A stretch of 64,000 nt of DNA, taken from the NCBI GenBank assembly GCA_037131895.1, contig JBAXQE010000010.1, positions 17,778 through 81,777 on the forward strand, read 5' to 3'. This DNA is from Chitinophagia bacterium. Its GTDB lineage: Bacteria > Bacteroidota > Bacteroidia > Chitinophagales > Chitinophagaceae. A program made the position numbers and the translations under genes. The notes beneath the pieces are model-generated. The model was not told the DNA's origin and did no database searches. It worked only from the letters and a program-made list of their open reading frames with translations. Shown one piece after another: positions 7,880-22,170 of the stretch (positions within the stretch are counted from its first letter, which is position 1; each line of letters begins with the position of its first letter).

Positions 7880-8020
7880 ACTTTCCAAAAGTAGGGACTT
7901 TTGGAAAGCTATGTCGGAGTGAGCATCTTTTAAGTGAAGATTACCTTTTGCGAAGTGTATTTTAATTCCAAACAGCAAAGTTTCCTTCTCCGGCGGAAGA
8001 CTTTTGGGAGAATGAAATTG
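7880..8020. repeat. Copy A of the degenerate intergenic hairpin repeat (REP-like)
   Basis: Hairpin actttccaaaagt-aggg-acttttggaaag, then ggagtga..taagtgaa..ccttttgcgaag..attttaattccaaac..ggagaatgaaat; aligns by eye with copies at 9438, 11044 and 13494. Confidence 0.75.
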
Positions 8021-9437: not shown

Positions 9438-9535
9438 ACTTTCCATTTGTTCGAGACTTTTGGAAAGTTTTATCGGAGTGAAAATCTGCTAAGTGAATGG
9501 TGTCCTTTTGCGAAGGAATTTTCGTTCCAAACCCG
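9438..9535. repeat. Copy B of the degenerate intergenic hairpin repeat
   Basis: actttcca..ttcgag-acttttggaaagt..ggagtga..taagtgaa..ccttttgcgaagg.attttcgttccaaac, co-linear with copy A. Confidence 0.75.
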
Positions 9536-11043: not shown

Positions 11044-11215
11044 ACTCCCCAAAGTTCGAGCCTTTTGGAAAGTTGTACCTTTCTAACCATTTGGTAATTG
11101 ATCTGCAAATGCAGAAAGGGACATTTTCATTTCAATCCGTGAAATGCCCCTAGGCTAAAAATTCGGAGAAAAAAATCAGTGTAAGTGTTGGTGCCCGTGC
11201 GCCTCTGGCGAAAAA
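11044..11215. repeat. Copy C of the degenerate intergenic hairpin repeat
   Basis: actccccaaagttcgagccttttggaaagtt..aagggacattttcatttcaatccgtgaaatgcccctaggc..cggagaaaaaaatcagtgtaag..gcgcctctggcg. Confidence 0.7.
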
Positions 11216-11247
11216 TATTTTCCTACATTTCCAGACTTTACTTTTCT

Positions 11248-11808
11248 TTACTCTGTAAGTAAAGTTATCTGTTCAGCCATGCTTACTAACTCATTTGTCG
11301 TTTTCCAATTTCTGGTGGTTGCACTTACTTGTAATTTTGTTTCCAAAAAGTTATTGGTCAATTTTGTTTTTCCATAACCATTCGGGCAATACAAATACAC
11401 AGCTGCATTAGTAAAAGCGATTGCTTCACCACTTAGTTTTTTTTCTTCTATTGATTTTACGTCAAATTTGGGTGGTTGGGCAGATAAAAAAGTAACATGT
11501 AAATAAGCAATATCTTTTTCTCTATCATTTATAAATGGGTTGCTAGCAATGATTTGTTTCAGCGTAAGCATACTAAACACAATTACTGGAACCTGAAAGC
11601 CAAAGTCTTTGGCAATTTGTTGAGTAATGGCTGCTGCCAGTTTTTCTGGGGCTGCCTTTTTACCTGTAAAAACAACATTTCCACTTTGCACATAGGTGGT
11701 AATGTTACCAAAACCTAACTTTTCATAGGTTTTGTGTAAGTCGGCCATTTTAATTAATTTTTGTCCGCTTACATTAATTCCTCTTAGTATTGAAATGTAG
11801 GTTAGCAT
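11248..11808 (-). CDS. DUF1697-domain protein
   Basis: YISILRGINVSGQKLIKMADL, TYVQSGNVVF, YLYCPNGYGKTKL, ATTRNWKT. Confidence 0.92.
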   Translation of the reverse strand: MLTYISILRGINVSGQKLIKMADLHKTYEKLGFGNITTYVQSGNVVFTGKKAAPEKLAAAITQQIAKDFGFQVPVIVFSMLTLKQIIASNPFINDREKDIAYLHVTFLSAQPPKFDVKSIEEKKLSGEAIAFTNAAVYLYCPNGYGKTKLTNNFLETKLQVSATTRNWKTTNELVSMAEQITLLTE

Positions 11809-12005
11809 TTGTGTTTGGTCATTTCAGGTTGTCGTTCTCGGGTTAAGTTACCTTTTGCTAACTCCGAAGGATTGTCGTGGAAAGAAAGTAAAAATACAAC
11901 AGTTCAAAGGGCTAGCCAGTATAAAGTACTATTGTGTTGTTCCTTCCTTGGTGTGGGAGAATAAGAGAGCTAGTGCCTATGCGCTACGGGAGCAAGATTT
12001 TTAGT

Positions 12006-12314
12006 TTATTGGTACACACTTAGAGTTAGCCTTCCCCCCAGCCCGTCTTGAATGATGCGCATGAGTGTAGACAAGCGAATATCACTAGCATTGTTCTCGA
12101 TTCGGGAAATATACGTTTTACTGGTTCCACATTTTTCCGCCAGTTCCTCTTGGGTAAGTCCCTTCTCTTTTCTTAGTTCCTGAATCATCACACCCAGTTT
12201 AAATGCCTCAAATTCTTGTTCATAGTTTTCCCTTTCCTTGGTTCCGCGTTTGACATATTGCCTATCCAGATGATCTGAAAAGGTAGTCAGGTTTTTATTA
12301 CTCTTTTTCATCAA
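12006..12314 (-). CDS. HigA-like XRE helix-turn-helix antitoxin
   Basis: IQELRKEKGLTQEELAEKCGTSKTYISRIENNASDIRLSTL; start overlaps the stop of an upstream toxin remnant. Confidence 0.9.
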   Translation of the reverse strand: MMKKSNKNLTTFSDHLDRQYVKRGTKERENYEQEFEAFKLGVMIQELRKEKGLTQEELAEKCGTSKTYISRIENNASDIRLSTLMRIIQDGLGGRLTLSVYQ

Positions 12315-12521
12315 AGTATAGTTTTTTTATTCTTTGCGCTAATATTATTTCTCGTCGGGGTGTTTTATGCGATTTTTTTTGAAATCCATTAATCACTATA
12401 ACTGGCTTATCAATTGTAAAGTCCAGTTGAATTATTTATGTACTTCGGAAGTAAGCAGCCCAAAAAAATTGAGGTAATACCGTTTGTAAAAAAAATCCCG
12501 CTTGTTCAAAGCATCCAACAT
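12298..12521 (-). pseudogene. RelE/HigB (Gp49-like) toxin remnant with internal deletion and frameshift
   Basis: Hand translation: ATG 12521 gives MLDALNKRDFFYKRYYLNFFGLLTSEVHK* (stop 12432-12434); another frame gives the C-terminus ..VIVINGFQKKSHKTPRREIILAQRIKKLYFDEKE* ending 12298 with the family motif NGFQKKxxKTP. A TAtaTTTG element sits just upstream. Confidence 0.75.
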
Positions 12522-12780
12522 CTATACGCAAATATAGAGTTATCTTATTAGTTAACGTTTTCCAATAAGTTTTTTTGATCAATTGCTTATTTTCTGCAGT
12601 TGGAAAGCAATGATTAGTCAACTTCTTTTTAATGGAGTAGATGCAAAATATACTGGTTGATCTTTTGCGGGAAGCGTATTTGTACCAAGGCATTTTTCGA
12701 CAAAAGAAGGGGGAATGTGAGCTTGTGAGCCTGTGGGGCATTTGAGAGAATGCGAAAGTAATGCTAAAGCTCTATGCCTT

Positions 12781-13062
12781 TTAACTATAATGAAACCTAC
12801 ACTGCACCACGCAGCATTGCTGATTCGCCCCCTTTTTTCCAGTAATGGAATATACCAGCCGATGCTCGTTGGTTATTCGGCGCGACCAATACCCGGTTAA
12901 ATCGTATCGGAGAGGTTCAGGCTTACCCATACCCTGAAAGGGAGTTTTGCGTATTTCATTCAGTAGGGTAATGATTTTATTGGCTATTTCCGGATCGGAG
13001 GCCATCCAATATTGAAAATCTTCCCAACCGATCTCTGTAAACAGGAAAGTCATACTCGCCAC
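12781..13062 (-). CDS. yoeB: Txe/YoeB family addiction-module toxin
   Basis: GWEDFQYW, PFQGMGKPEPLRYDLTGYWSRRITNEHRLVY, CRFHY; start may be ATG 13053. Confidence 0.93.
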   Translation of the reverse strand: MASMTFLFTEIGWEDFQYWMASDPEIANKIITLLNEIRKTPFQGMGKPEPLRYDLTGYWSRRITNEHRLVYSITGKKGANQQCCVVQCRFHYS

Positions 13063-13064
13063 AT

Positions 13065-13313
13065 TTATAACTTGTATTTCCGAGTTTTGCCCTCTTTCTG
13101 CTGACTGATCGACTCCCGCAGTCTTTTTCTATTGGCGGCAGCCGATAATAGGTGACCGGTTTCCTGCAATGAATTGTATTCTTTCAGCGATACCATCACC
13201 ACTGCCTCTTCATCTGTTCCGCGGGACACAATTATCACATCCGATGATTGGGAAACATCATCCAAATATCTTTTGAGGTTATTTCTCAGTTGGGTGGTAG
13301 TTACTGCCTGCAT
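13065..13313 (-). CDS. yefM: Phd/YefM family antitoxin
   Basis: From ATG 13313: [57 protein letters not shown]. The track start 13391 is probably too long. Confidence 0.92.
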
Positions 13314-13324
13314 TGCGTTAAGAT

Positions 13325-13353
13325 TGTACTTACAAATGTACGTATTTGTGTAC
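13325..13353 (-). promoter_or_regulatory. YefM-YoeB operator: three TGTAC cores at exact 12-bp spacing over a TAcaTTTG -7 element
   Basis: TGTAC at 13325, 13337 and 13349; minus strand contains tacatttg at 13333-13340. Confidence 0.75.
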
Positions 13354-13493
13354 GGTTTGGCTAGATTGCTCTGATTAATTTTTAGGCGCAATGTGAAATT
13401 AATTTGTGGACTAAAGTAAGTTCATAATACGAACAGAATAAGCATATGTATACCTAGTATTTATACTTAATAGCAAGGAAAAAAGTTTCAAAT

Positions 13494-13617
13494 AATTCGA
13501 TACTTTTAAAAAGTTGTATCTGAGTGAACGGCTTTTATGTGAAGTATGTTTTTTCGAAGGGCATTTTTATTCCAAATCGTAATGTGCCCCTGGGCGTAGA
13601 TGCGGAGAATGAAATGC
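13494..13617. repeat. Copy D of the degenerate intergenic hairpin repeat
   Basis: ttcgatacttttaaaaagtt..tgagtgaa..atgtgaag..ttttcgaagggcatttttattccaaatcgt..gcccctgggcg..gcggagaatgaaat. Confidence 0.72.
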
Positions 13618-13634
13618 ATACTTACTGAATTTCT

Positions 13635-14576
13635 CTACTTTCTTAGTATAGTACATTCCACGTCAATTCTTTTAAAATAGGTTGACCCATTTTCTATTCG
13701 GTTGTGCTCAAATATGCCTACGAACTTATACTCGTTGTATCCAAGTGGATCTTTGTACTTCATAAAAACGATCCGCTTTTTTAGGTCGGGGATATAAGAT
13801 TGATTTTTTTCGTTCCTTTCTATAATCACAGCGCCTCCTTCTGCTAACTGATTATGCCAGCCCGAATGTGTAGCAGCAATTAACTGCTGATTGCCCTGCT
13901 CATCTATAACCGGAATTGCCAGTTTTGGGAACCATAATTTATATCCCTCCAATTCTGTGCCTGTAAATGCAGGTAAGCTGAAATAGGCTCTGGAAGCACC
14001 TCCGGCAATTTCTTTTCTACCTGCAGCAAATAGCACATTGCAGGTTTTGTTGATAGAACTAAAACCCTTGCGGTCGCTAATAGAAATGGTGGATTTATTT
14101 TTATAATACCCTTCCGGTGTTTCTATTTGCCACAAGGGGGGATTCAATTCGCTTATCCGGCGTTGTATTCTTTCCACTGCTCTACTGATTGCTCCCTCCA
14201 GCTCTTGAAAATGGCCAGTTACCTTTATATGAATGGCCTCATAATTTTCAGCGGTAATTTTATACAAAATGTCGAATATAGTTACTTCCCGATGTTGGTC
14301 TCTTGCTGCTTGCCCAACTTCTGCATGATAGGCTTCATCACATTCAATACCTAGATTCAGTGCCGGAAAATAGAGGTCAATAAAAAAATGTGAGCGACCC
14401 GATTTTTTATTCGTATCCAATATATACTGTTGCGAAACTACTTCCAGGTTGGGATTTCCGAGTCGATGCCAAATGGCATTGATCACATAATTTTCGTAAT
14501 CTTTCCGATGGGTTCTCGATAAAGTTTTAATAAGGTACCTGGTTTTCGGATCGATAATGATGGCGTCGGATTGCAT
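13635..14576 (-). CDS. PvuRts1I/AbaSI-family modification-dependent (5hmC / glucosyl-5hmC) restriction endonuclease
   Basis: YLIKTLSRTHRKDYENYVINAIWHRL, VSQQYI, IDLYFPALNLGIECDEAYH (nuclease core); KLWFPKL, SGWHNQL and C-terminal RIVFMKYKDPLGYNEYKFVGIF (SRA-like domain) follow the PvuRts1I layout as recalled. Confidence 0.85.
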   Translation of the reverse strand: MQSDAIIIDPKTRYLIKTLSRTHRKDYENYVINAIWHRLGNPNLEVVSQQYILDTNKKSGRSHFFIDLYFPALNLGIECDEAYHAEVGQAARDQHREVTIFDILYKITAENYEAIHIKVTGHFQELEGAISRAVERIQRRISELNPPLWQIETPEGYYKNKSTISISDRKGFSSINKTCNVLFAAGRKEIAGGASRAYFSLPAFTGTELEGYKLWFPKLAIPVIDEQGNQQLIAATHSGWHNQLAEGGAVIIERNEKNQSYIPDLKKRIVFMKYKDPLGYNEYKFVGIFEHNRIENGSTYFKRIDVECTILRK

Positions 14577-14625
14577 GGATATTGGGTTGTGTCGGAAATA
14601 AAATAAGAATACTTTATTTGGATGC

Positions 14626-14904
14626 TCAACGCTTACTAATCTTATTCAACGAAATTGTTTTCTGCAAACTGCATTTGAAGCGACTGATTTCCTGATTTCG
14701 GGTTTTGGCATGTTTCTGACTCACCCCACTATTTACCCGCTTACGCCAAAGATTAAAACTACTGCGTTTCAGTTGCCTGCGCATCAGGGCAATTACCCTA
14801 GCCTCCGTAAGGCCAAATTGCAAATGGATGGCTTCAAAGGGGGTTCTGTCTTCCCAGGCCATTTCAATAATGCGATCGATATCCGTGGGAGTTAAATTTT
14901 CCAT
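14626..14904 (-). CDS. TIGR03643 (DUF2805) family protein
   Basis: IDRIIEMAWEDRTPFEAI..QFGL.E..VIALMR..LK.SSF.LWRKRV. Confidence 0.9.
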   Translation of the reverse strand: MENLTPTDIDRIIEMAWEDRTPFEAIHLQFGLTEARVIALMRRQLKRSSFNLWRKRVNSGVSQKHAKTRNQEISRFKCSLQKTISLNKISKR

Positions 14905-14938
14905 TGGAGTGCAAGGTACATGATGCTCGTAAATAATT

Positions 14939-15787
14939 TTATATCGCTTTTTCTAATTTGAAAAGGGTTATTTCTGGCCGTACATTAAATCGAACCTGCC
15001 AGAGATGCCCAAGCGCCCGGTTTATGTAAAGGGTTCTGCCATTGGAAAGAGAAATTTCACCAGCCGAATAGGTTTTATTTTTTACGGGTAACAGGGGAGG
15101 AGGTAAAAATGGTGGCCTGCATTGCCCGCCATGGGTATGGCCCGAAAGTATCCATCCATCATAACCTTGCCAAACATCCAAATCACATACATCGGGGTTA
15201 TGACAAAGTACCAAGCTTGCCTGAGAACTATCATATTCCTTCATAGCTGCCTCAGGATTAAAGCAGGTGCCCCAAAAATCATCCATCCCTATCAGGTGTA
15301 AACCTGCGCAGTCTTTTTGGCGGTTCCTCAATACTTCAATCCCTTTATCATTCAGCAGGGTAGTAATCGTATCTGCTACTTCGGATTGTTTCCAGTTAAT
15401 TCCATAATCATGATTTCCCAAAATACCAACGGTGGCTATTTTGCCCTTTACGCAGTGGTTGAGTACTTCGGTTAATGCTTCATATACAACCTCTCTCTTG
15501 TGTAAGCTTACATAATCGCCGGTATACACAACCAGGTCGGGATGATATTCCTGAGCTTTGCGGAAGGAGTCAATAATGTATTGATGGTCAAATCTTTTTC
15601 CAATATGGATATCGCTAATTTGCATCACTGTTTTTCCAACCCAATAATCAGGGAGATTTCGGATAGGCATTTTGCGTTGCACAAATTCAAGCCAAAAGGG
15701 TTCTACTTGCCAGGCATAGCCACCCCCTAGTATGCCTAACCCGGCAAATCCCGCTAGTGATTTTTTGATAAAAGCTTTTCTGTTCAT
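14939..15787 (-). CDS. Metallophosphoesterase (YkuE/YaeI-like)
   Basis: SDIHIG, YTGDYV, GNHDYG, LCHNPD, LSGHTHGGQ; N-terminal export/anchor segment. Confidence 0.92.
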   Translation of the reverse strand: MNRKAFIKKSLAGFAGLGILGGGYAWQVEPFWLEFVQRKMPIRNLPDYWVGKTVMQISDIHIGKRFDHQYIIDSFRKAQEYHPDLVVYTGDYVSLHKREVVYEALTEVLNHCVKGKIATVGILGNHDYGINWKQSEVADTITTLLNDKGIEVLRNRQKDCAGLHLIGMDDFWGTCFNPEAAMKEYDSSQASLVLCHNPDVCDLDVWQGYDGWILSGHTHGGQCRPPFLPPPLLPVKNKTYSAGEISLSNGRTLYINRALGHLWQVRFNVRPEITLFKLEKAI

Positions 15788-15922
15788 AGCCTAATTTCAT
15801 CCCATTCATCAAAAATACAATGTTAAAAAAGGGGGATTGGGAGGTTTTAATATTGGAATGGTAAATAACTATGAGGGAGCTAGAAGGGTTTTCACACGCA
15901 CCTATAGACTGATTGATCTCGC

Positions 15923-16348
15923 TTACGGTGTGGTTCTCCGCTCGCGTATTAATCCTATACCCAGGGTAACCAATCCCACAGCCAGCAATACCATGCCTGC
16001 ATATAGTATCACAATCATGCTATTAGGCCGGGTAAGTTGATGACCGATAGCGGCTGCAAAAAATCCGCCACTAACCGCAATGGCCGCCAGGGGAAAAGAT
16101 ATGCGAACCAGCCATTCCCAGCTCTTACTCAAATTTGCATGATCGGTAAGTACCTGCGCCACCAGCGATAAAATCACCAGCACCCCTGCATGGGCATGCC
16201 CTGCCCGAAACATGGATTGCTGAAAAGGGGTAAGTTCCAGTTCGGATGCTTGTCCGCTCAGTACCGTAAGTAAAAAATAGCCACCATAAATAATGGAAGG
16301 GATGGTGAGTAAGATAATACCACAGATTTTTTTGGTTAGAATTTGCAT
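15923..16348 (-). CDS. Hypothetical 4-TM membrane protein with FRAGHAHAGVL motif
   Basis: Four hydrophobic segments; ATG start with A-rich leader; co-oriented with neighbours. Confidence 0.75.
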   Translation of the reverse strand: MQILTKKICGIILLTIPSIIYGGYFLLTVLSGQASELELTPFQQSMFRAGHAHAGVLVILSLVAQVLTDHANLSKSWEWLVRISFPLAAIAVSGGFFAAAIGHQLTRPNSMIVILYAGMVLLAVGLVTLGIGLIRERRTTP

Positions 16349-16409
16349 AGTCGGATAATTGGGCGTACTTACTATTTTGATGAAGTTCGTTAATTGATTT
16401 TTTTATCAT

Positions 16410-18299
16410 TTATTCTATATACAACTGTTTTGACTTTGGTAATTTAACCGTATATTTTAATTCGAATTGCTGGGAAGCAGCATTTTTTAGCGGGAAATTC
16501 CAAAATAGTATGCCTGTTTCTGGTATTAGATTTCCATTGGAAATATTTAGAGGGGTTACTTCTATTTCTCCATTTGCTGAAACTGGAATTTGATCGTACA
16601 CCATGAGTTGGATAGGTTGACTTTTATTATTTTTTAGAGTTATTAACCAGGTTTTGGTTTCATCTTTTTTGTTTCCAAGGTATTGTTTAGAACTAAATTT
16701 TTTCTGACTCTCTCTCTTTACACTTACCCCTTTATCATTTCCAAGCGATATACTCAATGTGTCAGACATATAGCGCACATCCAGCAGGGTTTTGCCTGTA
16801 TAGGTGTCTTCAAAAAATAGATTTGCTTCTCCTTCCATAAAATTATATTTTTCCCAGTCAACAATTTTGGCAACTAGATAAGCCTTTTCATCTATTTTAG
16901 GAGTACAGTAGTAAAGATATTCTGCCGGCAGTTGATAATTTTCTATTTCTACTGTTTGCACCTTTCCATCCGATAATATCGTGTAAGGCGTTTTAATATT
17001 GAATTCAACACTGGTTTGATGATAGGTTTGCTGCGTTTCTACCAAGGCTTTATTTTTTTGAAATTTATTGTTTAAACTAAGTCCGGGTACTTTTCCTAAT
17101 AATTCATATTCAGGTTTGGAATATCCTGTAACAACAACCTCCTGTAATTCTTGTATACTGGCTTCTAAGCCAATATTAATTTGCTCTTGTAAAATTGGAA
17201 TTTCTTTTGTTTGATAGCCTACCAATGAAACAGAAAGCGTACCACCATTTTTGGGTATCGATAACTCATAATAACCATTTTTGTCGGAAATGTTTCCAAT
17301 AGAACTACCCTGAATAAATATAGAAGCTCCTTGAATAGGGCTGCCTGTTCTGCTATCATAAATTTTTCCACTTACTTTTCCAGATTTTAGGGTGTAAACG
17401 GGCGGTGGTAAATTGTAATCTAAATAATAGGGTTTTAGCTCCCTGAATGAACTGGAACCATTCGGGTCGGCGGAGGAAAGTTTGAGGCTTACATTTTTCC
17501 AGTTTTCAAGGGTATTTTGTTGAATATTTGCCTTATAGGCAATGTCCACCGGCTGCTCGATATTTTTTACTTTAATGTCATAGGAGGGCGTCCAGCCAGC
17601 ATTCGATACAATATATTTCAAATCAAATACGGCCCGGGTAGGATTTTTCGCTTCTATCTTCAACACAATTACTCCAGATGGATTGGTTGCCTTGGTTGTT
17701 TGTCCGGCAAGTTGTTTTTCTATTTTTGTAAGTTGCTTAGTCAAATCATCTAGTATCAACTGCCTTTCCACTCTTTTTAATTTGATAGCTGTAATTCTTT
17801 CTGTAAAATAGTTATTGGCTTCTTTTAGAGCGGCAATATTGATTCCCGTATTGGTACCACCAATGCTGCTGTTGTTTTTTAAGAATGTAAGTTCATCCTG
17901 TAGCACATCTTGGTATACAGATTCTATTTTCAGTTTTTTTTCAATTTCCAGTTTCGTTTTTTTGAGTTCTTCGTTTTCAGATGGTATCCCGTATTGAGTG
18001 ATATAGTCATCCTGCAGGTTTACTGACAATATTTGAAATTCTCCTTTTCCATTAATCTGTATACTCTTTGGGTCAATATAGGGCGACAAGCCCGTAAAAC
18101 TAATGGTACTTTTTCCAGCAGGTATTTCCGTGGTTTTGGATCTGCTAATCTGGGCACCTATCAGATATACGGTTACTTCTTTGATATCTGATTTTAACTC
18201 TATTTCCGAAATGGTTTGTGCGGATATAGCGTTATTGAAACAAATTAGACAGGGAATGAAAAGTAATTTTACGTAATCGGCAAGTTTAGATTTTTTCAT
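16410..18299 (-). CDS. DUF4140/DUF4139 (MuiA-like) protein with an internal carboxypeptidase-regulatory-like domain
   Basis: VTVYLIGAQISR, AGWTPSYDIKV, QQNTLENWKNVSLKLSS, GEANLFFEDTYTGKT, DQIPVS; inserted SGKIYDS..GASI..G...D.NGYY domain. Confidence 0.9.
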   Translation of the reverse strand: MKKSKLADYVKLLFIPCLICFNNAISAQTISEIELKSDIKEVTVYLIGAQISRSKTTEIPAGKSTISFTGLSPYIDPKSIQINGKGEFQILSVNLQDDYITQYGIPSENEELKKTKLEIEKKLKIESVYQDVLQDELTFLKNNSSIGGTNTGINIAALKEANNYFTERITAIKLKRVERQLILDDLTKQLTKIEKQLAGQTTKATNPSGVIVLKIEAKNPTRAVFDLKYIVSNAGWTPSYDIKVKNIEQPVDIAYKANIQQNTLENWKNVSLKLSSADPNGSSSFRELKPYYLDYNLPPPVYTLKSGKVSGKIYDSRTGSPIQGASIFIQGSSIGNISDKNGYYELSIPKNGGTLSVSLVGYQTKEIPILQEQINIGLEASIQELQEVVVTGYSKPEYELLGKVPGLSLNNKFQKNKALVETQQTYHQTSVEFNIKTPYTILSDGKVQTVEIENYQLPAEYLYYCTPKIDEKAYLVAKIVDWEKYNFMEGEANLFFEDTYTGKTLLDVRYMSDTLSISLGNDKGVSVKRESQKKFSSKQYLGNKKDETKTWLITLKNNKSQPIQLMVYDQIPVSANGEIEVTPLNISNGNLIPETGILFWNFPLKNAASQQFELKYTVKLPKSKQLYIE

Positions 18300-19017
18300 A
18301 ATGATATATTTATAAGGTTACATAAATTAAGTAGATTCCCTTTTTGCAATAATTTATTATTTTTTGGTTTACAATTTTTGCCCATATCGCTCACTTAATC
18401 TTACAAAAGTTCTTTTGCAAATATCAGAATGTTGGAAATATTTGGTATAGTGATTTCCATTGAAATTTGGCATGAACCTCCCCTATATAGATAATCATTA
18501 TAAAAATTGTTTCAATATCGTCTCATTCATTAAATGAATAAATTGCTTTTTCTTTTTAAGGGATTCGCAATTATGTTTATTGGTCATTAATTTAATCTAT
18601 TTTATTATACAAATTTCTTAAAGCGCTAAAATTTCTTGCTTAAAGTTATTTTTTTGATTTTTTTATCCAATTTGACCTAACTACCCTTTTGAATTAGCTA
18701 ACTTTTAAATCAATTAAAAATTTCCCCAGAATATTTAGTTGCAATTTTTGTGGGCTATTTATAATTTAACTATACTAATACTATTTTCGAAAAGGGGTTT
18801 TTCTCCACAGCATCTTGCATCTAGGGCTGGTTGTTTACTTTGAGGAACGAACTAACCACTTATTTTTATCACCAATTTTTGGTCAATTCTTTATTTCTGC
18901 CAGCCCCTTTTTCCCACCATTTTCTCTCTTCATTTAAACCCCACTGCCAACCCATAACCTCAAAAAATTGCAACCTCGCGCAGGCGGAATTTAATTAGAA
19001 TTATACATCCTAAATAT

Positions 19018-21244: not shown

Positions 21245-21294
21245 GTTCCTAGCTTAGTTTGCCTAGTCGCAGTATACGGAGAAAAAAATGTAAG
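21245..21294. repeat. Partial copy of the intergenic repeat
   Basis: gttcctagcttagt and cctagtcgcagtatacggagaaaaaaatgtaag match sub-units at 11149, 21951, 22060 and 55466. Confidence 0.5.
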
Positions 21295-21357
21295 GTAGAT
21301 TTAGTTAATTGCTTAGCAGCAGCCCAATTTGTAAGGAATAAATAAGCAAGCTACTTT

Positions 21358-21687
21358 TTAGACTCCCGATATAATAATGGGACCGAAAGGTAGTGGTGGA
21401 TTTTTCAAATACACTTGAACTTGTGAAGATAATTTTGTTAGTTCTGCGTATGAATTGATAGAAGCATTTAGTACAAAAACTGTAATGTTATATTTAGAAA
21501 AACTTTGCTGATAACTTAGGTTTTTGTCAAAAGTAAACAATGCATCAAATTCATTTTGAAGTAACAAATTCAGTAGTTGTCCATTTTTTATTCCATTCCA
21601 ACCTTTATCCCTGACTGTAAAAATCTCATGATCTGGAAAATCTAACTTTAAACGTTTTGGAAGATTTTCATCAAGCAAGAGTCGCAT
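21358..21687 (-). CDS. DUF5615 PIN-like toxin (VapC45-type)
   Basis: MRLLLDENLP, GWNGIKNGQLL, FDALFTFDKNL. Confidence 0.88.
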   Translation of the reverse strand: MRLLLDENLPKRLKLDFPDHEIFTVRDKGWNGIKNGQLLNLLLQNEFDALFTFDKNLSYQQSFSKYNITVFVLNASINSYAELTKLSSQVQVYLKNPPLPFGPIIISGV

Positions 21688-21910
21688 ATATTTGATCCGC
21701 TTTATGTGAAGTAAGCATTTTATGTGCTATTTCAAGAAGAGCTATTGCCTGTTCGCGGGTAACTGAAGGAAAATCCTCAAGAAATTCGTCTAGTGAAATT
21801 CCGGCCTCTAGATGGTCAAAAAGGGTGTCTACAGGAACTCGAGTACCTACAAAAACGGCTTGTCCGTTTTGTATTTCCTTGTCAACATGAATGATATCCT
21901 GAATGCGCAT
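21671..21910 (-). CDS. DUF433 antitoxin
   Basis: IHVDKEIQNGQAVFVGTRVPVDTLFDHLEAG..EFLEDFPSVTREQ; overlaps the PIN gene. Confidence 0.92.
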   Translation of the reverse strand: MRIQDIIHVDKEIQNGQAVFVGTRVPVDTLFDHLEAGISLDEFLEDFPSVTREQAIALLEIAHKMLTSHKADQIYATLA

Positions 21911-21950
21911 ATTATGAAGTTACGAAAATTCTTACTTGAAGGAAATTTTT

Positions 21951-22170
21951 GTTCCTAGCAAAGTACGCCTCCTTTTCATTGCACACCTTCGGAAATTTTT
22001 ATTCCAGACGGAGCAGTCTTTCACAGTATTCATTGGCTACACTGGGAAATTTCTAAGATGTTCCTAGCGTAGTCACCGTAACGATAGTGTAGAGACTGCG
22101 CGCTTTCGGAAGTTTTTATTCCAATCCGTGCAGTATACCTAGGCGCACTACACTGCGGAAAATTGGGGAA
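21951..22170. repeat. Two tandem units of the intergenic repeat (copies E and F)
   Basis: gttcctagc.. and gcacaccttcggaaatttttattccagacggagcagt duplicated as gttcctagcgtagt.. and gcgcgctttcggaagtttttattccaatccgtgcagtatacctaggcgcactacactgcggaa. Confidence 0.7.

Follow-up and report, generated by a model that had tools for sequence, protein, structure and literature searches.

A gene for a 313-aa modification-dependent restriction endonuclease of the PvuRts1I/AbaSI family lies on the minus strand of the window, a stretch of 64,000 nucleotides from the Chitinophagia bacterium contig JBAXQE010000010.1. The open reading frame was found to run from ATG to stop exactly over 13635-14576, the coordinates given in the initial annotation, whose core motif and strand relation to the neighbours were also correct, and it is followed on the same strand by a YefM-YoeB toxin-antitoxin pair (Table 1). 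In the antitoxin gene, the Pfam match begins at residue 27 of the longest open reading frame, and translation therefore probably starts at M27. The upstream neighbour of the nuclease is a DUF2805 gene. A copy of a local repeat family separates the nuclease from yefM, and the nuclease itself contains a predicted hairpin that is specific to its clade.

Table 1. Coordinates, strand and supporting evidence of the features around the nuclease gene (positions in the window)
Feature	Position	Strand	Evidence
Nuclease gene, 313-aa PvuRts1I/AbaSI-family modification-dependent restriction endonuclease	13635..14576	-	ATG-to-stop ORF, Pfam, PADLOC, PDB profile, Foldseek, dN/dS
N-terminal Vsr-like (variant PD-(D/E)XK) nuclease domain, residues 13-137	14166..14540	-	PF21598, 99.3 bits
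Catalytic core D67-LYFPALNLGI-E78-C-D80-E81-AY-H84	14325..14378	-	Read off the sequence; 119-member alignment
C-terminal SRA-like modified-cytosine reader domain, residues 157-309	13650..14108	-	PF18491, 74.2 bits; Foldseek
Clade-specific predicted beta-hairpin, about residues 220-236, between the base-stacking tryptophans	13869..13919	-	Spacing counts, AlphaFold2 model, profile-alignment gap
yefM antitoxin	13065..13313 (longest ORF 13065-13391; likely start M27, ATG at 13313)	-	PF02604, 65 bits
yoeB toxin	12781..13062	-	PF06769, 111.5 bits; TIGR02116, 98.2 bits
DUF2805/TIGR03643 gene, 49 bp upstream of the nuclease	14626..14904	-	PF10985, 116.7 bits
Local repeat copy of about 100 nt, 39 bp past the nuclease stop codon, between nuclease and yefM	13495..13596		Repeat families D1-D3

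The family of the nuclease was established by domain, profile and structure comparisons that agree with each other. The Pfam model PvuRts1I-like_N (PF21598) matched the N-terminal domain far above its cut-off of 27 bits, and the Pfam SRA model (PF18491) matched the C-terminal domain against a cut-off of 30.2 bits, which gives the domain order nuclease followed by SRA. The PADLOC model mREase_II matched the nuclease over its full length with 156.5 bits. When the single sequence was searched against the PDB, only AbaSI and PvuRts1I were retrieved, at about 3e-14. A profile made from 63 homologues of the nuclease retrieved AbaSI at E = 5e-44 and PvuRts1I at E = 7e-42 over nearly the whole length, and nothing else; the value for AbaSI places the family assignment far beyond chance. 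The same alignment was used to build an AlphaFold2 model, which reached a mean pLDDT of 82.5 and a pTM of 0.77. The significant Foldseek matches of this model in the PDB were five AbaSI/PvuRts1I chains only (4par, 4oq2, 4oky), with E values from 1e-18 to 3e-17, TM scores of 0.59-0.69 and alignments of 318-350 columns spanning both domains. Other SRA proteins (SUVH9, LpnPI, KRYPTONITE) were retrieved as non-significant matches only. The initial annotation had read a nuclease core and an SRA-like C-terminus from the letters, had named this family, and had proposed HMM and structure comparison with AbaSI and PvuRts1I as a check. Both comparisons turned out to be full-length and significant, and the C-terminus was found to have an SRA-like fold in the Pfam match as well as in the two-domain structural alignment. 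The gene is an intact, ordinary member of an already catalogued family. No NCBIfam model (release 20) matches the nuclease, and its relatives appear at JGI as 'hypothetical protein' or 'very-short-patch-repair endonuclease'. NCBIfam and JGI therefore leave an annotation gap over this clade, although Pfam and PADLOC recognise its members.

The residues on which activity depends in the solved enzymes were located in a 119-sequence alignment, in which the letters of AbaSI and PvuRts1I agree with the numbering of the papers. Residue roles were taken from the structure papers of AbaSI (PMC4081097) and PvuRts1I (PMC4157451). The catalytic core, DLYFPALNLGIECDEAYH, occupies residues 67-84 of the 313-aa open reading frame, and its D, E and H are invariant in the 119 aligned family members. 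The AbaSI residues K23, E26, Q47, Q48, D61, E72, D74, E75 and H78 correspond to K25, E28, Q49, Q50, D67, E78, D80, E81 and H84, and in the reader domain W224, W234, N236, E247 and R269 correspond to W215, W240, N242, E253 and R268. The PvuRts1I residues K17, D57, E71, W205, W215, N217 and E228 are all kept as well. In AbaSI, activity is abolished by mutation of K23, D61, E75, H78, W234, R269 or W304 (PMC4081097), and in PvuRts1I by mutation of K17, D57, E71, W215 or E228 (PMC4157451). All of these essential positions are kept in the nuclease except AbaSI W304, which is F301 and still aromatic; Tyr is the family majority at this position. The remaining two aromatic walls of the pocket, W262 and W304 in AbaSI, are Y261 and F301, so that two of the four tryptophans of the AbaSI '4W' pocket are replaced. 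Further substitutions relative to AbaSI are H77 to Y83, R227 to K218 and R282 to Y280. The PvuRts1I selectivity residues Y210 and A212 are A220 and H237 in the nuclease, where they flank the inserted hairpin.

Among known systems, AbaSI of Acinetobacter baumannii (PDB 4PAR, 4PBA, 4PBB) has the same order of Vsr-like nuclease and SRA-like reader and a similar length (321 aa against 313 aa here). Its identity to the nuclease is about 23%, within the 21-23% found for the solved enzymes by Foldseek, and its catalytic K, D, E, D, E and H are all matched, as are its five reader residues listed above. The 18-residue insertion in the nuclease domain of AbaSI is missing here. The best structural match was PvuRts1I from plasmid Rts1 of Proteus vulgaris (PDB 4OKY, 4OQ2), with TM scores of 0.66-0.69 and 21-22% identity. 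PvuRts1I is likewise solitary, without a methyltransferase, but it is plasmid-borne whereas the nuclease gene here is chromosomal. MspJI and the SRA-HNH enzymes (TagI, ScoA3IV) also fuse an SRA-like base-flipping reader to a nuclease. However, the domains of MspJI come in the opposite order and the SRA-HNH enzymes carry an HNH nuclease, and neither type of nuclease domain had a Pfam match in the protein. The pocket residue differs too. It is Asn in enzymes specific for hmC and Asp in UHRF1 and MspJI, which read 5mC (PMC4081097). MspJI and the SRA-HNH enzymes have this Asp and cut 5mC (PMC4081097); in the nuclease here the residue is Asn (N242).

The gene was found to be under purifying selection. 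Against the 96%-identical copy dN/dS was 0.136 and against the 86%-identical copy 0.095, values similar to those of flanking genes, and the gene is 942 nt long in the window and in two relatives. Its GC content is 0.401 and that of the genome 0.411; recent transfer was considered on the basis of composition and was set aside, as there is no anomaly. In a maximum-likelihood tree, the nuclease belongs to a clade of 22 members (SH-aLRT 99). A MAG of Kordia and a "Bacteroidetes bacterium" MAG from Lac Pavin are among them, and the other members are metagenome proteins without a label. This clade is uncharacterised, mostly environmental and linked to Bacteroidota, and it is placed far from AbaSI and PvuRts1I, on a different major branch. 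The half of the tree that holds the nuclease has 80 rows and also includes relatives from Bifidobacterium and Microbacterium genomes (L021 and L066), which, to judge by their organism names, may be close to BbiDI and Mte37I. A second copy from the host's class (L097, G257:C1:3407389-3407730) is 39% identical to AbaSI, has a spacing of 10 residues between the two base-stacking tryptophans and belongs to the AbaSI/PvuRts1I branch, so that two distant subfamilies occur within one class.

The distribution of the gene is sporadic. It is missing from the 24 same-genus and 16 same-order species genomes that were sampled. Besides the host, PF21598 was matched above its cut-off in one of 400 evenly sampled Bacteroidota species genomes, and also in one of 400 in each of two other phyla (a Dysosmobacter and a Tractidigestivibacter genome). 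A gene that is sporadic and about equally rare in the sampled phyla is as expected for a mobile defence gene, and the family is neither special to Bacteroidota nor specially missing from them. Relatives were found on 49 plasmid records. Most of these are conjugative plasmids of Providencia and Proteus, and the NCBI name of the relatives there is "AbaSI family restriction endonuclease". Carriage by phages was considered and rejected, as only two distant full-length relatives occurred among 2.9 million viral contigs. The twenty characterised homologues come from Proteobacteria, Bifidobacterium, Microbacterium, Propionibacterium, Bacillus megaterium and marine metagenomes, and none of the twenty is from Bacteroidota (PMC3627594). 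The view that known members are mainly proteobacterial was therefore imprecise: the characterised set also includes enzymes from Bifidobacterium, Microbacterium, Propionibacterium and Bacillus, and the rate of 1/400 was the same in three phyla. All twenty characterised homologues, which span Proteobacteria, Actinobacteria and Firmicutes, favour hmC or glucosyl-hmC substrates (PMC3627594).

The nuclease is also solitary, as the initial annotation had stated. No methyltransferase was detected among the open reading frames scanned in about 8-22 kb of the window, and no C5-cytosine methyltransferase (PF00145) was matched in the whole genome, which is 99.5% complete. The same PF00145 search was positive in 9 of 14 control genomes. 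A C5-methyltransferase gene was found about 530 bp away from a clade member that is 63% identical (L110:5001-10927), which suggests that the clade tolerates 5mC or cuts it inefficiently. That member is located between RmuC and a cluster of the C5-methyltransferase, HATPase_c_3 and Z1/ResIII genes, with the look of a defence island. On these circumstantial grounds, an hmC-type rather than a 5mC-type specificity would fit both a host without PF00145 and a clade member that adjoins a methyltransferase. A literature search returned no report of an hmC-containing phage of Bacteroidota. Judged by the family of its enzyme, the host may reasonably be supposed to encounter phages with modified cytosine.

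Taken together, the open reading frame probably encodes a functional, solitary type IV (that is, type IIM) modification-dependent endonuclease of the PvuRts1I/AbaSI family. Its dimerisation, base flipping, cut geometry and actual substrate are inferred by analogy with the solved members. As in those members, the protein would form a homodimer through its N-terminal helices, and the corresponding helices (H10-19 and H26-39) are present in the AlphaFold2 model. Each SRA-like domain would flip a 5-substituted cytosine into an aromatic pocket, whose walls would be W215, W240, Y261 and F301 and in which N242, E253 and R268 would read the base. The paired Vsr-like domains, with K25, D67, E81, H84 and Mg2+, may then cleave the two strands roughly one helical turn 3' of the base. 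By the same analogy, the cuts would fall about 11-13/9-10 nt 3', optimally where the site lies between two cytosines spaced by about 21-22 nt. This geometry follows the AbaSI/PvuRts1I type, and in the characterised set cleavage takes place at N11-13/N9-10 from hmC or glucosyl-hmC (PMC4081097, PMC3627594). No methyltransferase would be needed, since unmodified host DNA would be spared. In the cell, the gene may guard against phages or incoming DNA in which hmC-type bases replace cytosine. It would do so from a small variable stretch of a Bacteroidota chromosome into which YefM-YoeB was probably inserted independently.

Members of the PvuRts1I/AbaSI family are used as Aba-seq reagents for the mapping of 5hmC. 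The analysis extends this well-studied family by a Bacteroidota-linked clade from the environment that is uncharacterised and in which the pocket rim is visibly different. Its importance is modest, and the clade is a reasonable choice for the screening of new glucosyl- or hmC selectivities. The difference in the rim lies between the two base-stacking tryptophans, which are 25 residues apart in the nuclease (W215-W240) and 10 apart in AbaSI and PvuRts1I, giving 15 extra residues. In the AlphaFold2 model, these residues are predicted as a hairpin with strands at 219-224 and 230-233 and a moderate pLDDT of about 64-70, and in the profile alignment the AbaSI and PvuRts1I rows are gapped at this place. 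The predicted hairpin offers the sole structural hint of an altered specificity.

With these residues, a reading of the locus can be formulated in which family and mechanism are the same but the enlarged pocket rim of the clade confers a substrate range other than the T4-type substrates of AbaSI and PvuRts1I. Candidate substrates would be arabinosyl-hmC, the products of phage TET-type pathways or other bulky 5-substituted cytosines. We regard this as unlikely, although several observations point towards it. Through the family, the spacing of the tryptophans increases stepwise, with values of 10, 15, 19, 21 and 25 residues: 15 was found in Bifidobacterium-type sequences (L021) and in many Firmicutes sequences, 19-21 in others, and 24-25 in the nuclease's own clade, which has the longest common form. 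The 15 extra residues stand where PvuRts1I has its Y210/A212 rim segment, in which single mutations were shown to shift the selectivity between hmC and 5mC (PMC4157451). The Y210 site itself is A220, and Tyr and Phe stand at two of the four pocket tryptophans of AbaSI. Given these differences at the pocket rim (the 15 extra residues, A220, Y261 and F301), the substrate preference could differ. The characterised homologues were also reported to vary strongly in their preference for alpha- or beta-glucosyl-hmC (PMC3627594). Against a changed range, the two Trp and the Asn, Glu and Arg that contact the base are unchanged, and the hairpin is modelled with moderate confidence only. The spacing of 15 in L021 bears on the question as well: if BbiDI is alike, as its organism name may suggest, a moderately longer loop is compatible with hmC specificity. 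If the enlarged rim did change the substrate range, this would hint that freshwater phages carry DNA modifications not yet known, and the clade could provide a new reagent for the mapping of modified bases.

The preferred reading of a solitary endonuclease also has to be weighed against one in which the nuclease works as a unit with YefM-YoeB, the pair stabilising or backing up restriction through abortive infection or addiction. The initial annotation had suggested such a backing from the position of the pair. Adjacency on the same strand speaks for it, as do the several toxin-antitoxin loci in the 14-kb neighbourhood, which are typical of defence or plasticity hotspots. The comparison with three syntenic relatives (L083 and L084, 96% identical; L004, 86% identical) speaks against it. 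These share just two blocks with the window around the gene, 13633-14927 with the nuclease and DUF2805 and 11242-11810 with DUF1697, and the DNA homology breaks off 2 nt after the stop codon of the nuclease gene. The slot 11947-13632 in the window holds an HTH gene, a remnant open reading frame, yoeB and yefM; in the relatives it holds no YefM-YoeB but an unrelated gene of 142-144 aa. A tblastn search with YefM and YoeB covered 80 other homologous loci, including flanks of up to 6 kb, and returned nothing. They were likewise not found in four further clade neighbourhoods, whose neighbours are variable and defence-like (AAA and WYL; TerY, kinase and PP2C; PIN). Within the window, a 321-bp spacer (13314-13634) that contains a repeat unit separates the nuclease from yefM, and a TACATTTG box before yefM suggests that the pair has its own autoregulated promoter. 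A shared unit is therefore highly improbable, and the idea of a restriction enzyme backed by a toxin-antitoxin pair is not supported. YefM-YoeB was concluded from these comparisons to be, in all likelihood, an independent, strain-specific cassette that is a neighbour and not a partner of the nuclease.

The putative control region of the toxin-antitoxin pair has features of its own. The -7 consensus of Bacteroidota is TAnnTTTG. The TACATTTG sequence is a -7-like box located 20 nt upstream of the yefM ATG, where it overlaps GTACA repeats; the motif is not enriched in the window. The box is overlapped, at 13333-13360 on the minus strand, by a pair of direct CGTACA repeats and by a TGTAagTACA palindrome. 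The GTACA repeats may be an operator like that of E. coli yefM-yoeB, and together with TACATTTG they suggest a plausible YefM-YoeB operator and promoter. The 142-144-aa protein that occupies the slot in the relatives (L083:8945-10088, L004:3790-4957) contains 'IIPDVSV...IIEVTRNRS'. By eye it looks like a small PD-(D/E)xK (Uma2-like) nuclease, and its sole match in the tools used was a weak one to PADLOC PDC-S03 (E = 0.0095).

Vsr endonucleases are single-domain proteins of about 150 aa that work with the Dcm methyltransferase. The reading of the gene as such a very-short-patch repair endonuclease, acting on T/G mismatches and not in defence, can be dismissed: no Vsr family is among the Pfam and NCBIfam matches at E <= 1, the protein has an extra SRA domain of 150 aa that Vsr is without, the genome has no C5-methyltransferase with which a Vsr could work, and the presence of the gene (0 of 24 same-genus species, 1/400 per phylum) follows the pattern of a defence gene and not of a repair gene. 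The resemblance is confined to the Vsr-like fold of the nuclease domain (PMC4081097) and to the JGI name of several homologues. The locus is thus best described by a PvuRts1I/AbaSI-family endonuclease.

The DUF2805 gene was considered as a partner of this endonuclease and was rejected. It belongs to the core of the genus and was detected in 13 of 15 same-genus genomes without the nuclease, and near nuclease homologues it was found only in the three syntenic relatives. An empty-site comparison was made with four same-genus genomes; DUF2805 alone was common there, without synteny, and the boundaries of the insertion were not definable by this comparison. A 4-kb segment that adjoins DUF2805 (14928-18960) encodes a metallophosphoesterase, a 141-aa membrane protein and a DUF4139/DUF4140 protein. 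In L083 and L004 a junction of 85-120 bp replaces it, which indicates a second strain-specific insertion. A toxin-antitoxin region with a DUF5615 (PIN-like) gene at 21259-22094 is missing from the otherwise collinear L083 and likewise indicates a strain-specific insertion. The window-specific segments 11947-13632, 14928-18960 and 21259-22094, together with the local repeat family, mark this part of the chromosome as a variable stretch. No integrase was identified for it.

The local repeat family has four strong copies in the window, at 7890-7992, 9449-9532, 11054-11156 and 13495-13596, and weaker copies near 22099 and 55501. All copies have one orientation, and each of the four strong ones is located just after a minus-strand gene. 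The repeat was examined for the role of a terminator, of an attC-like site and of a known RNA, and these were rejected on the grounds of a fold no better than that of shuffled sequence (z = 0.10), no terminator-like site and no Rfam match. An nhmmer search of the whole genome returned eight matches, seven of them on the contig of the nuclease. A copy of the repeat also follows the nuclease gene in the relatives L083 and L004.
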